From: Promethearchaeota archaeon
GTDB lineage: Archaea > Asgardarchaeota > Lokiarchaeia > Sigyniarchaeales > SOKP01
NCBI GenBank assembly: GCA_048937405.1
Contig: JBHLNF010000001.1
Location: forward strand, 720,785 to 784,784
Length of the DNA: 64,000 bases
Direction of reading: 5' to 3'
Shown here piece after piece: positions 1 through 8,909 of this stretch. Position 1 is the first letter of the stretch; each line of letters opens with the position of its first letter. The translations under genes were made by a program, and so were the position numbers. The notes under the pieces are model-generated. The model saw only the letters and a list, made by a program, of their open reading frames with translations, did no database searches and was not told the origin of the DNA.

Positions 1-1434
1 ATTTCGAATCTATATGGTATTGATAAGGATCTTTTTTTAGCGAAGATAAGTAAATTATACTTAGAAATATTAAGTAATGGAAAATCAAATATATTTTGTG
101 AAGATTCATTAGATCCAAAAAGTTATAGATCTCCAGCAAAAAACTTAATAAAAAATGATAGTTTTGATTATATCTTTACTAATCCTCCATTTGGAGTTAA
201 AATTCCTATAACTTATAAAAATATCTTAAAAGACTACCAATTAGCGCATATTTGGAAAAACCTCGACGACAAGTGGGAAATGCAAAATAAAATATTAAAG
301 CAACAATCACCTCAAATTTTATTTATTGAAAGATGTGTCCAATTACTCAAGACAGGTGGTAAACTGGGGATTGTCTTACCAGAAGGAATATTTGGAAATG
401 TAACAGATCGCTATATATGGGAATTTTTAACCTCTCAAGGCAAAATTTTAGGTATCATTTCTTTAGATCAGAACACATTCCAACCATACACATGTAACAA
501 AGCAAGTATTCTATTCTTTCAAAAATTAAATGAACTTCCAGAAGATTATACAATTGATTTTGCACTTGTAGAAAATGTTGGTCATGATAAAGATGGAAAA
601 GTCTTATATAAATTGAATAAAAATGGGAGCAAAAAGCTAGATTCTAATGGAAATGAAATCGTCAATGATGATCTTACAGATTTACATTTAAGATTAAATG
701 AATCTGAAGAGTTTAACTATTTAAAGGAGCAAAAAGTATTTAAAATAAAATTTAGTCAAATTAAAAATAAGATTTTTATCCCTGTTTATTATATTGGTGT
801 AGAAAAAATATTAAAGAAGCTTGCGGATGATAATAATTTCACTCTTTTTACTATTAAAGATTTGATAAAAAAAAAAATAATTTATTCTAATAAAGGTGGT
901 TATCTCCCTCGAGGAGACGAGATTGGTTCAAAGCTATATGGATTGGGAGATATTCCTTTTATTCGAACTAGCGAATTAAACAACTGGGAAATAAATTTAT
1001 ATTCTTATAAAAAGACTAGTGAAGAGGTTTATCAACAGTATAAAGATAAGCAAAATATAGAAATTGGAGATATATTATTGGTTAAAGATGGAGGTCCAAA
1101 TTTAATTGGAAAGACGGCTTATATCACAGAATTGGACACTAAAATAATCATTCAAAGTCATATTTTCCAGATTAAGACCATAAAAAACGATGAAAATATT
1201 GATCCTTACCTTTTATTATATCTATTTAATTTAGATGTCGTTCAAAAACAGATTCAAGCAATTACATTCGTTCAAGGTACAATTGCCACTATTGGGAATC
1301 GAATTATGGAAGTTGTTCTGCCAATCCCCGTTGATATTAATAAAAGGAAGGATATTTCAAGCACTATTAAGAAAATCATTGAGCAAAAAACGGAGATAAG
1401 GAAAAAAATAAACAATTTGTCTTTAACCTTGTAA
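1..1434 (+). CDS. N6-adenine DNA methyltransferase fused to a C-terminal HsdS-like target-recognition domain (Type I/IIG-like R-M protein), 5'-truncated by the window edge
   Basis: Frame 1 is open from base 1 (ISNLYGIDKD...FDYIFTNPPFG, with NPPF motif IV at 181-192). It continues into LFIERCVQLLKTGGKLGIVLPEG and a TRD-like region (IPFIRTSEL...GDILLVKDG...IGKT...LPIP). Confidence 0.88.
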   Translation: MSNLYGIDKDLFLAKISKLYLEILSNGKSNIFCEDSLDPKSYRSPAKNLIKNDSFDYIFTNPPFGVKIPITYKNILKDYQLAHIWKNLDDKWEMQNKILKQQSPQILFIERCVQLLKTGGKLGIVLPEGIFGNVTDRYIWEFLTSQGKILGIISLDQNTFQPYTCNKASILFFQKLNELPEDYTIDFALVENVGHDKDGKVLYKLNKNGSKKLDSNGNEIVNDDLTDLHLRLNESEEFNYLKEQKVFKIKFSQIKNKIFIPVYYIGVEKILKKLADDNNFTLFTIKDLIKKKIIYSNKGGYLPRGDEIGSKLYGLGDIPFIRTSELNNWEINLYSYKKTSEEVYQQYKDKQNIEIGDILLVKDGGPNLIGKTAYITELDTKIIIQSHIFQIKTIKNDENIDPYLLLYLFNLDVVQKQIQAITFVQGTIATIGNRIMEVVLPIPVDINKRKDISSTIKKIIEQKTEIRKKINNLSLTL

Positions 1435-1521: not shown

Positions 1522-1743
1522 TTAAACATATCGAACTTTTATTTCCACTGAAGATATATCATCTATTCGTATTATTGAATCATAATAAGATCTATTACCC
1601 TTTTGTTCCAGAATCAAACAAAATTGCCCAACTTCCTTAATAGTTCCCAAATATTCCTTCCCGGAGTTAAGTATAATATATACTTCCTTAGTCTGAAGCT
1701 TTGTTAAGTAATCCTTTATTGTGTAATTTTCATTATATTCCAT
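1522..1743 (-). CDS. Small Sm/Hfq-like fold protein
   Basis: 73 aa. Sm1-like LQTKEVYIILNSGKEYLGTIKEVGQFCLIL and Sm2-like IIRIDDISSVEI. AAGGAG SD upstream of the ATG. Confidence 0.6.
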   Translation of the reverse strand: MEYNENYTIKDYLTKLQTKEVYIILNSGKEYLGTIKEVGQFCLILEQKGNRSYYDSIIRIDDISSVEIKVRYV

Positions 1744-1801: not shown

Positions 1802-3991
1802 TTATTGTTGATGATTTCTATTTTCAAGTCTACTGATTCTTTCTCCTAAATTTTCTATTTTTCTAATTATACTGTCAAGTTTTTCATCTAACATAAGACG
1901 AAATCGTTCATATATGTCCGTAATACTCTTTTCACGTTCTTTTTTACCCATTAAATCAATTTCGCGTTTGAAATTTTCAATGTATTTATATACATCCTCA
2001 CACAATGTATCAAAATTTTCAGTATCATATTCCAAGCCTAGTTCTCTTGAAAGATTTCTTTCAGCTAAATCTGACCATTCTACATCTTTCCCTTTTAAAG
2101 GAATCACAGGAATTGAGAATTTATCCGCTAATTGTAATTCATTAGTGCAATCTACAGAATCAAAAACAGATTTGTTTGTTGCAATGAATAATACTAATTG
2201 ACATTTCTGTACTGTATCTAGCATCCATTCATCAATATTGCCCGCGAGATCTTCTTCACAGAAAAAAACTTCAGATATCTCTTTTTGTTTTTCCAGAAAA
2301 TCTACAAGAGTTCCTATCTGATATGGTTCAAAATCGATTACTGCATGAGATATAAAAACTCTTATTGTCGCTTTCTTTCTTAGATATTTTAATATTAGGT
2401 CAGGTACTTTTTGTGAAATCGTTATTTCTTCAGATTCAAATGGATTGTTGGTTAGATTCAATTCAGCAAGTTCTTTTAGAGCCCATAATTCAGTTGGTAT
2501 ATTAGTAAGTTTATTATTACTTAAATTTAGATTTTTGATGGCTGTCAAATTAATAAATGATTCTGGAAGTTCAGTTATTTGGTTATTTGAAAGGCTGACT
2601 TCCTCAAGTTTAGTGCAATTTCCAATTGAGCTTGGCAAAGATGTTATACTATTATCATTTAGGATTAAATGCCTTAAATCTTTCAATAATCCTAAATCCT
2701 CAGGCAATTGGGTTATAAATTGTCCTGTAGCACTAATTCCAATAATTTGATTTTCTTCGACTAATACCCAAAAACCATTTTGATCGGGCATTTCTCCCAT
2801 TCTTATCATAGGTTTTGCTCTTGAGGATATTTGTGGAAGCACTTTAATTAATGATTCTGGTATATCCATTAAATAAAACCAGAACATAGGCGGTAATCCA
2901 GTTATTCTTACTTTATTTGCTCTAATCTTTTTTATTGCATTAAGATTTGCTCTATAAAACTCTAAATCTTTATTTGCATATGTTAAATTCTGAAGAGTTT
3001 TTATTTCAGCTAAGAATTCTGGGATGGGATTGATATCATTACCATCTAAATTCAAATTTCTTAGCTTTTCAACATTTTTTAGTGTTTCTGGTAAAGATTT
3101 TAGGTTATTTTTTGGTAGATATAAACTTTCAAGTTTATTTAGATCTCCAATGATATCTGGTAAGGAACTTATTTGATTTTCATCAAGATATACTTCTTTT
3201 AAATTTTCTAATTTACCAAAACTATTAGGTAGAGTTGTAAGTTTATTTCTCTTTATAATTAATTGAACTAGATTTTTTAAATTACCAATATTCTCAGGTA
3301 AATATAATATTTGATTATTACTCATATCCAACCTTTTAAGATTTTTAAGGTTTCCAAAAGCCTCAGGTACAGATAATAGGGAATTCAAATTTAATTCTAA
3401 GGTTTCTAAATTTTCAAGTGTTCCAAAGTTATCTGGTAAGTATTTTAATTGATTTCTTTTCAATGTTAATCTTTTTAAACTTCTCAAATTCCCAAATGAT
3501 TCTGGCAGAGTTGTTAATTCATTGCCCCAAAGTTCAAGAACAACTAAATTTTCCAAATTTCCAAAACTATTAGGGAGCATATTTAATTTATTATTACTTA
3601 ATGTTGCAAATTTTAAATTTCTTAGATTTCCGAAACTTTCTGGTAAGGTAGCTAATTCTGTGTGCTGTATTACAAGTTCTTCTAAACTGAATAACTCCCC
3701 AAAGCTATCTGGCAAAGATTTTAATTTATAGGCTTCTAATGCAATTATTTCTCTTAGATTTTTCAAATTACCAACACTTTCTGGTAGACTTTCAAAAGCT
3801 GAAGAACTGATATTTAATTTATTTAAGGATTTTAATTCTCCAATAACATATGGAATGCTTGTTTTTTCAATACTTCCTAGATTAAGATCCACAGCATTAC
3901 TGTCATCATACTTAACTCGAGTTTCAAGAGATATACCTAACTCTTCTTCAATTTGTTTAATTATTTCTTTATCATCTGTCACTTTTTTCAA
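1802..3991 (-). CDS. LRR-TIR-coiled-coil protein
   Basis: Many 23-aa LxxLxLxxNxLxxLPxxFGxL repeats in two blocks. TIR domain RVFISH...DCTNEL...IPVIPL, then a C-terminal heptad coil. TTG start. Confidence 0.9.
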   Translation of the reverse strand: MKKVTDDKEIIKQIEEELGISLETRVKYDDSNAVDLNLGSIEKTSIPYVIGELKSLNKLNISSSAFESLPESVGNLKNLREIIALEAYKLKSLPDSFGELFSLEELVIQHTELATLPESFGNLRNLKFATLSNNKLNMLPNSFGNLENLVVLELWGNELTTLPESFGNLRSLKRLTLKRNQLKYLPDNFGTLENLETLELNLNSLLSVPEAFGNLKNLKRLDMSNNQILYLPENIGNLKNLVQLIIKRNKLTTLPNSFGKLENLKEVYLDENQISSLPDIIGDLNKLESLYLPKNNLKSLPETLKNVEKLRNLNLDGNDINPIPEFLAEIKTLQNLTYANKDLEFYRANLNAIKKIRANKVRITGLPPMFWFYLMDIPESLIKVLPQISSRAKPMIRMGEMPDQNGFWVLVEENQIIGISATGQFITQLPEDLGLLKDLRHLILNDNSITSLPSSIGNCTKLEEVSLSNNQITELPESFINLTAIKNLNLSNNKLTNIPTELWALKELAELNLTNNPFESEEITISQKVPDLILKYLRKKATIRVFISHAVIDFEPYQIGTLVDFLEKQKEISEVFFCEEDLAGNIDEWMLDTVQKCQLVLFIATNKSVFDSVDCTNELQLADKFSIPVIPLKGKDVEWSDLAERNLSRELGLEYDTENFDTLCEDVYKYIENFKREIDLMGKKEREKSITDIYERFRLMLDEKLDSIIRKIENLGERISRLENRNHQQ

Positions 3992-4092
3992 ACCATTTAT
4001 ATTTTTCTAATTTTGAAATAAAAAAAAGATATTTCTTAATCTAAATTATTAATTTTGTTTTTCATTGAAAATAAACTTTAAACATTAATTAT

Positions 4093-5787
4093 TTAACTTT
4101 TTTTTTCGAGGTTTTCGATTCTATCTGTAAGACTTTTCATATTACTAGTTAATCCATCTATTTTTCTGATTACTTCACTCAGTTTCTCATCTAACATAAG
4201 ACGAAACCGTTCATAAATGTCTATTATTCCTAATCGTCGTTCCTCCTTTTCCATTAAATTAATTTCTCGCTTGAAATTTTCAATGTATTTGTATACATCA
4301 GAGCAAAATTGGTCGAAGTTATCAATATTATATTCTAATCCTAATTCCCGAGAAAGGTTTATTTCCGCCAAATCTGGCCAACCTATATCTTTACCCTTTA
4401 TGGGAATGACTGGAATAGAGAACTTATCAGCGAGCTGCAGTTCATTGGCACAATCTACGGAATTAAAAACTGATTTATTAGTCCCAATAAATAAAATTAG
4501 TTGACTCTTTTGCACAGCATTTAGCATCCACTCATCAATATTACCAGCAAGATCTGACTCACAAAAAAATACTTGAGATATTTCTTTTTGTTTTTCCAAG
4601 TATTTTACAAGCTCTTCTATGCGATAAGGCTCAAAATCGATAACTGCGTGAGATATAAAAACTATTATTGTAGCTTTCACTCTAAGGTATTCTCTAATTA
4701 AATCTGGAACTTTTTGTGAAACAACCATCTCTTCAGGATTTAGAGGATTGTTGGATAAATCTAAATCAGTAAGCTCTTTAAGTCCCCATAATTGTGTAGG
4801 GATCTCACTAAATTGGTTATTGTTAAGATTAAGATTATTAATCGACGTTAAATTAACAAAAGATTCTGGCAAAGTAGTCAATTTATTACTAGATAAATCG
4901 AGAATTTCTAAATCCTTTAATTCTCCAAAAGACTCTGGCAACGCTTCGATTTGATTACGCGAAATTATCAATGATTTTAGATTATTAAAAATTCCAAAAT
5001 TCTCTGGTAAGGATTTAATGCCATACCCAACAAATTTCCACTCCGTGACTTTACCATCCTCTACTTTTATTGCTAACCTAGATATCCTACCCTTTTTTTC
5101 ATCTTGAATGGTATCTTTTTCAATTTCACGTATGATCTCAATCTTTTCTTTAGGGAGATCATGCATTGCTTGAAACTGAAGTATAGCTGGTGCGAGTATA
5201 GTACCTCCTCTTTTATAAACACTTTTTAATACATTGAGACTTATATCATTCCATTCAAGATTATTAAATACTACTTTCAAGGTTTTTAGATTATCTAAAT
5301 TTCCTAACCATTCTGGTAAAAAATTCAAATTATTATTCTGCACATTAAGATGAGATAGGTTGTTAAGTTCCTTCATCCAATCAGGTATAGATGCTAACTC
5401 ATTAGTCTCTAGATTAAGACGGTTCAAATTCTTAAGCTCTCTCATCCATTCAGGTAATGACTTTAAATGGTTGTCCGATAAGTTTAATGATTCTAAATCT
5501 TTGAAATTTCTAATAAAATCTGGAACTTTATCAACCACTTTATATTTTAGACTTAAACCTTTTAGAGATTTAAGATTGCTCACAGAGTCATATACTTTTT
5601 GTTGATCTTGCTCAGATAAATCTAAATAATAGAAATTAATACCTATATATATTACATTATCTCCTTTAAGATAATAAAAAAATTCAGCATTATCTAAATT
5701 TTGTTCATAATAATCGTCGTGAATTTTTTTTAATTCCTTTCCTGTAAGTTTTGAGATTTCTTTAATTACTTTTAAATCATCACTCAT
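4093..5787 (-). CDS. LRR-TIR-coiled-coil protein (paralog of 1802..3991)
   Basis: LRR repeats, TIR VFISH...DCANEL...IPVIPI, C-terminal coil. GGTGA SD before the ATG. Confidence 0.9.
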   Translation of the reverse strand: MSDDLKVIKEISKLTGKELKKIHDDYYEQNLDNAEFFYYLKGDNVIYIGINFYYLDLSEQDQQKVYDSVSNLKSLKGLSLKYKVVDKVPDFIRNFKDLESLNLSDNHLKSLPEWMRELKNLNRLNLETNELASIPDWMKELNNLSHLNVQNNNLNFLPEWLGNLDNLKTLKVVFNNLEWNDISLNVLKSVYKRGGTILAPAILQFQAMHDLPKEKIEIIREIEKDTIQDEKKGRISRLAIKVEDGKVTEWKFVGYGIKSLPENFGIFNNLKSLIISRNQIEALPESFGELKDLEILDLSSNKLTTLPESFVNLTSINNLNLNNNQFSEIPTQLWGLKELTDLDLSNNPLNPEEMVVSQKVPDLIREYLRVKATIIVFISHAVIDFEPYRIEELVKYLEKQKEISQVFFCESDLAGNIDEWMLNAVQKSQLILFIGTNKSVFNSVDCANELQLADKFSIPVIPIKGKDIGWPDLAEINLSRELGLEYNIDNFDQFCSDVYKYIENFKREINLMEKEERRLGIIDIYERFRLMLDEKLSEVIRKIDGLTSNMKSLTDRIENLEKKS

Positions 5788-8000: not shown

Positions 8001-8909
8001 ATGATAATATTAAAAATTAATATGAAGGATATGGAAACGGTTGGAGGCTTAAAAGAGTTTATAGATGGAGTATTTACAAAACGAAATTGGGATTTGTTTA
8101 TAACTCTTGTTCTTGAAGCTAATAAGGAAAGCCTTATTACACTGATAAAGGATGATATGCTTAAGATGGTTTCTAATAAGGTTAAAATATGGATAAATTC
8201 AGAAAATAATCAAAAAGAATTAATTAATTTAATAACAGAAAAGGGAATGACGATATACAATTCAGAATCTCATAAAAATGATGAGGTTTTAAGTTTGGAT
8301 TCAATAAAAGATTATTCATCAATAGATAATATTTTGTTTAAGATTTTAGATTTTGATAAAGCTAATGGACTGATACCAACAATTGTACAAGACCTTAATG
8401 ACAATGTACTAATGCTTGCATATTCATCAAAAGAGTCCTTGAAGGTTACAATCAAATATAGAAAATCAACTTATTTTAGCAGATCGAGGAATCGCCTATG
8501 GACTAAAGGTGAAGAATCAGGAAATTATCAAATTGTAAAGAGCATTCTTTACGATTGTGATGCGGATACTTTATTATTTAGGGTAAAACAGAAAGGTTTT
8601 GCTTGTCATAAAGGTACTTATTCTTGTTTTCAGGATCGGAAATTTTCTATAGGATATCTCTATGATTTAATAGTTGATAGAATCAAAAATTATAGTGTAA
8701 ATGAATCCTATAGTAAAAGACTTGCTGAGGATAATGAATTATTAATGTCTAAAATTGAGGAAGAGTGTAACGAAGTGATAAATTACACCGATAGGGATAA
8801 CTTAATTTGGGAAATTGCAGATATTGCATATTTTATTCTTGTATTAATGGCTACCAAAAAAATTAAACCTGAAGAAATAATAAATGAATTAAAGAGGAGG
8901 AACAAATGA
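8001..8909 (+). CDS. hisIE: Bifunctional phosphoribosyl-AMP cyclohydrolase / phosphoribosyl-ATP pyrophosphatase with a ~105-aa N-terminal extension
   Basis: HisI motifs GLIPTIVQD, SRSRNRLWTKGEESG, DCDADTLL, ACHKGTYSCF. HisE motifs SYSKRL, KIEEE, EIAD. Confidence 0.92.
   Translation: MIILKINMKDMETVGGLKEFIDGVFTKRNWDLFITLVLEANKESLITLIKDDMLKMVSNKVKIWINSENNQKELINLITEKGMTIYNSESHKNDEVLSLDSIKDYSSIDNILFKILDFDKANGLIPTIVQDLNDNVLMLAYSSKESLKVTIKYRKSTYFSRSRNRLWTKGEESGNYQIVKSILYDCDADTLLFRVKQKGFACHKGTYSCFQDRKFSIGYLYDLIVDRIKNYSVNESYSKRLAEDNELLMSKIEEECNEVINYTDRDNLIWEIADIAYFILVLMATKKIKPEEIINELKRRNK

Follow-up and report, generated by a model that had tools for sequence, protein, structure and literature searches.

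TIR domains belong to the small set of immune modules that bacteria, plants and animals have in common. Among the closest described systems, NLR and STAND receptors (TIR-NLR, Avs, bNACHT) need a central NTPase, and the self-association element beside the TIR is a SAM octamer in SARM1 and an NB-ARC resistosome in plants. Here we describe two neighbouring genes, A and B, of a Promethearchaeota archaeon, which belong to a family that joins an LRR array, its putative sensor, straight to a catalytic-looking TIR, without an NLR-type NTPase switch or the membrane topology of a TLR, and in which the element beside the TIR is a coiled coil. The family bears on how sensors became wired to TIR and on what Asgard archaea contribute; no paper in the literature searched describes it, and it looks like an undescribed family of LRR-TIR-coiled-coil sensors. 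The window analysed is a stretch of 64,000 nt of assembly GCA_048937405.1 (contig JBHLNF010000001.1, positions 720,785 to 784,784 of the forward strand), to which all coordinates below refer.

Gene A, of the long A-type lineage (1802–3991, 729 aa), and gene B, of the short B-type lineage (4093–5787, 564 aa; orthologs with 87–92% identity), lie on the minus strand, as do all of their features given here, and both ORFs are open without internal stops; the true start of A is probably the GTG at 3982, three codons downstream of the listed start, which gives 726 aa. Both products are laid out as a first LRR block, a spacer, a second LRR block, a TIR and a coiled coil, and the Pfam matches, the AF2 model and the heptad register agree on the order of LRR array, TIR and coiled coil that the original prediction had read from the sequence. 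In A, the first block (residues about 46–335; 2987–3856) holds 12 repeats of 23 aa with an LPxSFGNL signature, and the second (about 426–521; 2429–2716) holds 4 repeats, both by Pfam; the TIR (542–680; 1952–2368) and a coiled-coil tail (681–729; 1805–1951), the latter delimited by heptad analysis and alignment, follow. In B, Pfam and repeat inspection place 4–5 repeats of 23 aa with an LPEWM-type signature in the first block (about 56–185; 5233–5622) and Pfam places 4 repeats in the second (about 256–352; 4732–5022), followed by the TIR (373–510; 4258–4671) and the coiled coil (511–564; 4096–4257). In both proteins the repeats recur at exactly 23 residues, spanning 56–332 and 416–521 in A and 75–185 and 247–352 in B, and Pfam LRR_14 matches both strongly (178 bits in A, 93 bits in B). 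The difference in first-block consensus, LPxxFG in A versus LPxWM in B, proved genuine and extends to the repeat number, and the strings DLAGNIDEWML, ELQLADKFSIPVIP, YIENFKREI and DIYERFRLMLDEKL, quoted earlier as C-terminal likenesses, were all found in both proteins. The predicted coiled coil is seen in B as a long AF2 helix at model positions 159–208 with heptad periodicity, one register having 67% LIVMF at the a/d positions. Likewise in line with the prediction, a TM helix is absent, the top 19-residue Kyte-Doolittle mean being 0.99 in A and 1.35 in B, compared with about 3.0 in genuine membrane TIR paralogs of the same genome, and Pfam and NCBIfam scans found no NB-ARC, NACHT or STAND NTPase in either protein; the extra domains of longer relatives are only LRR, TPR or WD40. 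Since signal peptide, ectodomain and TM helix are all absent, LRRs and TIR would both be cytosolic, and A and B are predicted to be soluble, cytosolic proteins.

At the profile level the TIR match is marginal: Pfam TIR_2 (PF13676) scored 28.1 bits in A and 29.5 bits in B, passing its cut-off of 28 bits only when the C-terminal 200 aa were scanned alone. A precomputed PF13676 match is present in many relatives; a profile search of PDB sequences recovered no TIR, which counts against the function favoured below. The TIR fold itself, as originally proposed, was supported by an AF2 model built from the alignment (pLDDT 80.8) with the flavodoxin-like, five-stranded beta-alpha order A to E, for which the best Foldseek matches were SARM1, RPS4, SPARTA, MyD88, Roq1 and AbTir. 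Supportively, the independent aligner VIA-align returned RPS4/RRS1 (Z 14.3), RPP1 (13.4), TIR-1 (13.4), Hydra TRR-2 (13.2) and ThsB (12.3), with the non-TIR folds of MilB and deoxyribosyltransferases close behind (Z 12–12.5). The closest ESM Atlas clusters carry TIR_2, and the nearest predicted structures beyond the Promethearchaeota cluster are bacterial TPR-TIR, WD40-TIR, FGE-sulfatase-TIR and STAND-TIR clusters. The family pattern FISHA...FxCEEDLxGxxI...LxxFxxTxxSxxSxDCxxEL runs parallel to that of plant and bacterial TIRs. Alignment and motif scan showed that the predicted catalytic position is kept in DCxNEL, the counterpart of plant WCxxEL, as Glu618 of A (DCTNEL, 613–618; Glu codon 2138–2140) and Glu449 of B (DCANEL, 444–449; Glu codon 4441–4443), the assignment being made from motif and secondary structure (start of helix alpha-C, after strand beta-C) rather than from residue-level superposition. 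This Glu is invariant in 38/38 aligned relatives and in 120/120 relatives of the motif scan, and the loop after strand beta-B is equally invariant in all family members checked. From sequence and model, it is plausible that the TIRs of A and B are of the NAD-cleaving type, that is, putative enzymes.

A and B share 50% identity across 510 aa, distributed as a gradient from 29% in the first LRR block, 14% in the spacer and 52% in the second LRR block to 70% in the pre-TIR helix, 80% in the TIR and 54% in the coiled coil. The dN/dS ratio is 0.05–0.15 in the TIR versus 0.2–0.57 in the first LRR block and spacer, and the LRR concave face is the most variable (1.67–1.93 bits versus 1.16–1.47 at convex positions), so that the pattern of a conserved effector and divergent sensors holds. 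Positive selection on the LRRs, raised with the same prediction, was not found, as dN/dS exceeded 1 in no region over a meaningful number of codons. Three observations count against the function favoured below: all regions of A and B are under purifying selection, the TIR-coiled-coil half has an unusually high mean column identity of 71%, and A- and B-type orthologs are 86–92% identical over their full length, LRRs included, a divergence slower than that of many arms-race receptors. The family TIR also forms a distinct subfamily, with 370–380 bits among members, whereas the remaining TIR_2 proteins of this genome score 34–56 bits.

The protein collection contains more than 1100 members. Among 201 sampled Asgard genomes the family is present in 21, confined to two related families of the 27 sampled, so it looks lineage-restricted, to Lokiarchaeia only, within this sample. 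Distribution is patchy even within one family (18/40 genomes; 2/10 of the same genus), individual genomes encode several paralogs, often arranged in tandem, B is found alone in many genomes, and at the otherwise syntenic locus L029 A is missing together with the small gene downstream of it; the patchiness, the loss of A and the paralog number represent accessory behaviour. This small gene (1522–1743, minus strand) lies 58 nt downstream of A and encodes a 73-aa putative Sm-like protein; AAGGAG precedes the ATG by 8 nt, and the stop is followed by a T9 run. It is the sole copy in the genome and adjoins a family member in 10/10 informative occurrences, including L028, L031, L015, L016, L014, L033, L034 and two Logan contigs; it accompanies a subset of the family, the A-type branch. 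Its Pfam LSM score of 22.9 bits falls short of the 23.4-bit cut-off, and weak matches to Sm D1, LSm6 and Hfq (E 0.1–2) fall on one common segment. This conserved gene is absent from the earlier sequence-only reading.

The other neighbours of A and B are GNAT, NMO and a type II N6-adenine DNA methyltransferase with a fused specificity (TRD) domain, of whose 691-aa gene the 3′ two thirds lie in the window (1–1434, plus strand). The methyltransferase is convergent with A and is the same neighbour in L028 and L029; it stands alone, with no nuclease beside it and in a locus that has his-operon, Alba and CODH genes on its flanks, so the adjacent restriction-modification gene invoked earlier is not one, and this syntenic neighbour is a candidate link only. 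Family neighbourhoods consist mostly of housekeeping genes, no defence island was evident at the family loci inspected, and PADLOC gave no match with whole proteins or C-terminal halves; the housekeeping setting and the PADLOC result count against an immune function. HEPN/MNT pairs adjoin family members in two independent loci, which counts in its favour, as does the methyltransferase beside A. The same genome attaches TIR to a wide variety of sensor domains, in at least 17 proteins that include WD40-TIR, PCI-like-TIR and ectodomain-TM-TIR fusions, some on solute-binding ectodomains, which fits the TIR as a common output module; it also encodes seven SIR2_2 proteins, whose genes sit elsewhere than the A/B locus.

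These data make a role in immunity or in NAD signalling plausible. The explanation that we favour, at about even confidence, is that A and B are cytosolic LRR-TIR sensor-effectors that cleave NAD+ when oligomerised, most likely where the cell is in conflict with mobile elements, viruses among them. The data show which domains are present, the TIR fold, the invariance of the Glu, the periodicity of the coiled coil, the gradient of conservation, the distribution among genomes and the linkage of A to the small gene; we infer that the TIR is an active enzyme, that assembly activates it, that the LRRs bind a ligand and that the setting is immune. The two LRR solenoids would be the ligand-binding part, with variation concentrated on the concave face, and the TIR would be an NAD+-cleaving enzyme activated by oligomerisation, of the SARM1, plant TIR, AbTir and ThsB kind. 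The C-terminal coiled coil would keep two or more chains joined, so that a ligand on the LRRs could bring pre-paired TIRs into a higher-order arrangement in which the active site is formed. Activity would end either in NAD+ depletion, leading to growth arrest or to abortive infection, or in a signal derived from ADP-ribose that a further protein reads, and A may act with the co-transcribed Sm-like protein as regulator, guarded target or signal reader. The TIR fold and motifs, the selection pattern, the variable concave face, the TIR repertoire of the genome and the accessory distribution count for this explanation, and circumstantially so does an Asgard virus that encodes a homolog of Tad2, a sponge of TIR signals, while Thoeris is undetected in its hosts (PMC13700489).

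The most serious alternative, which we hold to be possible and rather unlikely, is a non-immune cellular signalling device, part of the expanded LRR, small-GTPase and receptor apparatus of Lokiarchaeia, in which the LRRs would bind an endogenous protein or a cue from a partner organism and the TIR would make an NAD-derived second messenger or regulate NAD+ levels. The strong conservation of full-length orthologs, the purifying selection in every region, the housekeeping neighbours and the lack of a PADLOC match all speak for it, and the extreme conservation of the TIR-coiled-coil half would be expected, too, of a housekeeping signalling protein whose partner in the cell does not change. Moreover, this genome joins TIR through a TM helix to solute-binding and other ectodomains, which resembles environmental rather than virus sensing. 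Against it stand the patchiness of the family down to the genus level, the presence or absence of A as a single gene within a syntenic locus and the variable LRR concave face, and all characterised prokaryotic enzymatic TIRs act in defence (review PMC11249213).

It is improbable that the TIR is instead a non-enzymatic assembly scaffold in the style of animal TLR/MyD88, with surfaces for paralog co-assembly and a structural Glu. Such a role would suit a conservation that goes beyond the needs of catalysis and takes in the entire surface of the TIR together with the coiled coil, as well as the multiple, often tandem paralogs, the presence of MyD88, TIRAP and IL-1R-family TIRs among the structural matches (Z 11–12.4) and a degenerate TIR without the Glu in C16, another tandem pair that this genome encodes; however, the invariant Glu and loop after beta-B are the signature of enzymatic TIRs, the best structural matches are enzymatic TIRs, and neither a death-domain nor a kinase partner was found beside the genes. 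That recent duplication or gene conversion produced the C-terminal likeness as an artefact, in a pair without joint function, as the tandem arrangement in one orientation and the near-identical peptide strings might suggest, is hardly credible, since dS between the two TIRs is saturated at about 2, only two DNA-level 20-mers are held in common, and A and B have their own orthologs in different subclades. The saturated synonymous sites indicate that the likeness is due to purifying selection and not to gene conversion. The original description of tandem paralogs stands as to adjacency, orientation and homology, but the pair did not arise by recent duplication; A-type and B-type are old, separate paralog lineages.

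If A and B are active NAD+-cleaving sensor-effectors, they would add to the Asgard defence repertoire an NAD-linked system that current defence-finding tools, PADLOC as run here, miss, and could explain TIR-signal sponges in Asgard viruses whose hosts have no detectable Thoeris (PMC13700489). A broader and speculative proposal, which we consider doubtful, is that Lokiarchaeia possess an NTPase-free, soluble LRR-TIR mode of innate sensing in which paralogs with different LRR surfaces co-assemble through a shared, near-invariant TIR-coiled-coil hub and fire an NAD-derived signal; the 71% column identity would then reflect the hub, and in the A-type branch the Sm-like ring protein would couple RNA to the system as a guarded target, trigger or reader. 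Taken with the ectodomain-TM-TIR receptors, this proposal, if true, would mean that receptors in general use TIR as their output in the prokaryotes most closely related to eukaryotes.

Compared with known systems, the Toll-like character proposed originally is retained for domain order only: the LRR-then-TIR order is that of TLRs, and the Hydra TRR-2 TIR (PDB 4w8h; 23% identity) is among the best structural matches, but the TLR topology is lacking, the LRRs are of the 23-residue intracellular LPxxhGxL type found in ROCO proteins and bacterial effectors, and the putative catalytic Glu is kept, in contrast to the scaffolding TIRs of TLRs (PMC11249213). Confinement to two Lokiarchaeial families speaks indirectly against an ancestral trait, and the family is no evidence for TLR descent from Asgard proteins. 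With Thoeris ThsB, the likeness is one of fold (8% identity), A and B match no PADLOC model, and no ThsA-type effector (SIR2-SLOG or Macro/TM) is adjacent. More generally, the enzymatic TIRs (SARM1/TIR-1, RPS4, RPP1, RUN1, Roq1, AbTir, SPARTA TIR-APAZ and ThsB) have the fold in common with A and B (Z 12–14.3), as well as the FISH-type start of beta-A, the loop after beta-B and the CxxEL Glu at the start of alpha-C, at 13–23% identity apart from ThsB and with a sequence match only at the Pfam threshold; A and B differ in having LRRs directly N-terminal to the TIR, without NTPase, SAM/ARM, Argonaute or a separate ThsA. Like the paired plant TIR-NLRs RPS4/RRS1 and CSA1/CHS3, A and B are two TIR receptor paralogs side by side, and the RPS4/RRS1 TIR heterodimer is the best structural match of the model; the plant pairs differ in their head-to-head arrangement, as opposed to head-to-tail here, and in their NB-ARC, B occurs alone in many genomes, and since both TIRs are intact, the pair appears to have no sensor/helper asymmetry. 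Finally, prokaryotic fusions of a repeat sensor to TIR (TPR-, WD40-, FGE-sulfatase- and STAND-TIR) follow the same design of a superstructure-forming repeat or a ligand-binding domain plus TIR, from which A and B are set apart by a double LRR module, a distinct conserved TIR subfamily, a conserved coiled coil and, in a subset, the accompanying Sm-like gene.

The two LRR-TIR-coiled-coil paralogs are encoded on contig C7 of a 4.47-Mb Asgard genome, where gene B (window 4093–5787, minus strand, 564 aa) is followed 101 nt downstream, on the same strand, by gene A (window 1802–3991, 729 aa). The A start codon is probably GTG 3982, because the A orthologs open with MT(D/N)D..., a start that aligns with residue 4. 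Pfam matched LRRs strongly in both proteins, with a repeat period of exactly 23 residues, and the repeats fall into two blocks, at residues 56–332 (12 repeats, LPxSFGNL signature) and 416–521 (4 repeats) of A, and at residues 75–185 (4–5 repeats, LPEWM) and 247–352 (4 repeats) of B. The spacer of 70–90 residues between the blocks matched no Pfam family in either protein, and the two spacers were homologous to one another (BLAST E 6e-6). A spacer arising as a repeat of the N-terminal cap received no BLAST support (E 0.4–8.7), and the NCBIfam matches, to the LRR effector types XopAC, XopL, SspH2 and LIC_11051, were all sub-threshold and mirror the LRR type rather than membership. Neither a hydrophobic segment nor, by Pfam and NCBIfam, an NTPase domain was found in A or B, in agreement with the original prediction that TM helix and NB-ARC/NACHT domain are both lacking. 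Two 95-codon antisense ORFs (window 1914–2201 and 4217–4504, plus strand) occupy equivalent positions opposite the TIR/coiled-coil coding parts, and are most likely by-products of conserved AT-rich sense frames rather than genes.

The nature of the C-terminal half was examined by sequence and structure searches. TIR_2 of Pfam was missed on the whole proteins and reached 28.1 bits (A) and 29.5 bits (B), against a cut-off of 28, when the last 200 residues were searched alone, while a profile of 38 relatives (alignment A1, covering the TIR-coiled-coil half) recovered no TIR among PDB sequences, only chance matches; the sequence evidence alone was therefore thin. Single-sequence AF2 of this half was unusable (pLDDT 54), and the AlphaFold model built with A1 was used instead, which was confident (pLDDT 80.8, pTM 0.71) and displayed the TIR order from beta-A to alpha-E followed by a 50-residue helix. 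Foldseek placed SARM1, RPS4, SPARTA TIR-APAZ, MyD88, Roq1 and AbTir at its top ranks. Supportively, an independent second aligner gave the highest Z scores to RPS4/RRS1 (14.3), RPP1 (13.4), C. elegans TIR-1 (13.4), Hydra TRR-2 (13.2), SARM1 (13.2), TIRAP (12.4) and ThsB (12.3), with the related non-TIR folds MilB and deoxyribosyltransferases just behind at about 12, and the closest ESM Atlas clusters carried TIR_2. The C-terminal half of A and B is thus a TIR domain and then a coiled coil, as had been proposed, and in the tail one heptad register alone was seen, its a/d positions being 67% L/I/V/M/F. The family motif string, VFISHA ... FFCEEDLAGNID ... LILFIxTxKSVFxSxDCxNEL, mirrors the pattern of classical TIRs. 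Its putative catalytic glutamate (B E449, A E618) stands at the start of the helix after strand beta-C, the place predicted to correspond to that of the catalytic glutamates of enzymatic TIRs. The FISH start, the DCxNEL glutamate and the 69-residue spacing between them were kept in all 120 relatives listed, so the earlier claim of a retained catalytic position held.

Next, conservation was compared along the chain. Between A and B, identity was 29% in the first LRR block, 14% in the spacer, 52% in the second LRR block, 70% in the pre-TIR helix, 80% in the TIR and 54% in the tail. Gene conversion as the cause of the common C-terminus was ruled out by the saturated dS of the TIR (about 2), and since only two 20-mers are shared as well, it is purifying selection that keeps the two TIRs alike. 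Across the 38 diverse relatives the TIR-coiled-coil half had 71% mean column identity, and in 30 full-length members the majority-residue frequency was 0.85 in the TIR versus 0.42–0.57 in the front part. In ortholog comparisons dN/dS was 0.05–0.15 for the TIR and 0.2–0.57 for the first LRR block plus spacer, reaching ≥1 only in the tiny N-terminal cap, on very few changes. Within the LRRs, variability was highest at the concave-face x positions (1.67–1.93 bits), followed by the convex (1.16–1.47) and scaffold (0.45) positions. The proposed conserved effector with a diversified sensor therefore survives as a gradient in identity and dN/dS along the chain. Positive selection was not detected in these comparisons: the concave face, suggested as the place to look for it, is the most variable, yet selection is uniformly purifying. 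In a comparison of B with its 92% identical ortholog at locus L029, dS was 0.02–0.17 over most of the gene and leapt to 1.3 in the coiled-coil tail (window 4096–4257), where identity was 70%; B may thus have a breakpoint, from recombination or of a mosaic gene, close to its 3′ end.

More than 1100 relatives of A and B were found, and their source labels, wherever given, were all Asgard MAG or marine-sediment metagenome, with Promethearchaeota and Lokiarchaeia MAGs among the source names. Full-length orthologs exist for both A (90%, 86% and 79% identity) and B (92% and 87%). A quick ML tree gathered 15 of the 16 long, A-type forms into one clade (SH-aLRT 92), nested among the short forms and apart from the subclade of B. 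Because each gene has its own orthologs and the two are placed separately, the A–B tandem is old. When 201 sampled Asgard genomes were surveyed with the TIR-coiled-coil profile (E ≤ 1e-30), 21 matched, the genome of the window included; that genome excluded, matches occurred in 18 of 40 genomes of its own taxonomic family and two of three of a sister family, and none in the 25 other Asgard families sampled. Within the genus, two of ten genomes matched.

The surroundings of the genes were then inspected. Syntenic locus L028 carries both B and A together with a 73-aa gene, a methyltransferase in convergent orientation and Alba, whereas L029, otherwise syntenic, runs his operon, GNAT, B, methyltransferase and Alba, without A and without the small gene. 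Elsewhere, some family members stand alone amid metabolic genes and others beside HEPN/MNT pairs. The methyltransferase, conserved in synteny at both loci, is a type II N6-adenine enzyme of 691 aa (window 1–1434; full gene L030:12144–14219) with a fused, type-I-like specificity domain at residues 483–687. The adjacent R-M gene described earlier is this methyltransferase alone, with no nuclease gene adjoining it, and could be either an orphan methylase or an incomplete R-M system. Two independent loci (L014:11721–12340 and L015:8153–8978) carry HEPN/HepT plus MNT (Polbeta) toxin–antitoxin pairs adjoining or close to LRR-TIR genes, and the MNT proteins matched the PADLOC candidate system PDC-S09. 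A close HisIE (E ≤ 1e-40; query hisIE, window 8001–8909) was present in only one of the 12 other genomes of the genus; the genus-wide synteny test was therefore uninformative, and the his operon beside the locus appears patchy or very divergent within the genus.

The small gene (window 1522–1743, minus strand, 73 codons) begins 58 nt after A, with AAGGAG 8 nt 5′ of its ATG and a T9 run after its stop, and co-transcription with A would fit this layout. It is the sole copy in the genome, and its relatives (30–87% identity) lie on the same strand directly downstream of LRR-TIR genes at L028, L031, L015, L016, L033, L034 and on two Logan contigs; at L014 it is divergent, upstream of a tandem LRR-TIR pair. 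It adjoined a family member in all ten informative occurrences and was absent from 20 species-representative genomes that have the LRR-TIR family; it therefore accompanies part of the family as an accessory gene, chiefly the A-type members. Its product scored 22.9 bits against LSM of Pfam (threshold 23.4) and matched Sm D1, LSm6 and Hfq weakly, all on one segment; judged from these matches, it is likely an Sm-like barrel. A complex prediction with full-length A scored 0.00, which counts neither for nor against binding, and PADLOC returned no match for the 73-aa protein.

At least 17 TIR proteins were found in the genome, among them further LRR-TIR-coiled-coil paralogs, PCI-like-TIR and WD40-TIR proteins. 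In a second tandem LRR-TIR pair (L017, G000:C16:87682–92450; 789 and 800 aa), FISHA and DCAHEL are preserved in the downstream gene, and the upstream gene reads MLIY, lacks the loop that follows strand beta-B and carries QIL instead of NEL, so that a degenerate TIR with its glutamate lost stands beside an intact one. A tandem PCI-like-TIR pair (L019, G000:C19:164764–166827; 333 and 347 aa) combines a weak PCI-like (winged-helix) N-terminal domain with a canonical TIR_2. Five further proteins of 1028–1638 aa (L022, C13:247457–250828; L024, C28:304170–308897; L025, C13:195642–200558; L026, C9:22470–25691; L027, C17:157313–160399) have large ectodomains of the SBP_bac_5, Peripla_BP_6, NosD beta-helix and WD40/fn3 types, a clear N-terminal hydrophobic anchor in four of the five, a single strong TM helix and, at the C-terminus, a TIR_2 domain with the glutamate kept. 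Their topology is that of a true outside-in receptor whose tail is a TIR. Apart from the LRR-TIR-coiled-coil paralogs, the TIR proteins of the genome belong to a more canonical TIR_2 subfamily, scoring 34–56 bits with the A1 profile versus 370–380 for A and B. Seven SIR2_2 proteins (715–1891 aa), none adjoining window genes, are possible NAD-consuming effectors or readers. With at least 17 TIR proteins on varied partner domains, this organism seems to use the TIR as a general output module.

For A and B themselves, the reading with the best support, which we regard as an even prospect, is that they are cytosolic sensor-effectors, in which the LRRs would bind a ligand, the coiled coil would pre-pair the chains, and ligand-driven assembly would switch on a Glu-dependent NAD+-cleaving TIR, giving NAD+ depletion or signal production. 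The setting is likely conflict with viruses or mobile elements, on indirect evidence: the distribution is patchy, paralogs are many, A is present or absent at one locus, the concave face is variable, some neighbours are methyltransferases or toxin–antitoxins, and an Asgard virus carries a Tad2 homolog although Thoeris is not detectable in its host (PMC13700489). Against a defence setting stand the blank PADLOC result for A, B and their C-terminal halves, the mostly housekeeping neighbours, the purifying selection throughout and the unusually conserved TIR surface. Co-assembly of the paralogs would account equally well for that surface. So would a TIR serving a fixed cellular partner, which is on balance improbable.

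The sensor-effector reading was finally set against known systems. No description of Asgard LRR-TIR proteins was found in the literature searched, and the Asgard defence surveys consulted name TIRs solely within other systems. Of the likeness to animal Toll-like receptors originally noted, the LRR-then-TIR domain order alone stands, whereas the topology, the LRR type and the catalytic residue retained in A and B differ. Collectively, A and B belong to the repeat-sensor plus TIR-effector kind, itself known. What is new about their family is its double LRR, together with the conserved coiled coil, the Sm-like companion gene and the restriction to one lineage.
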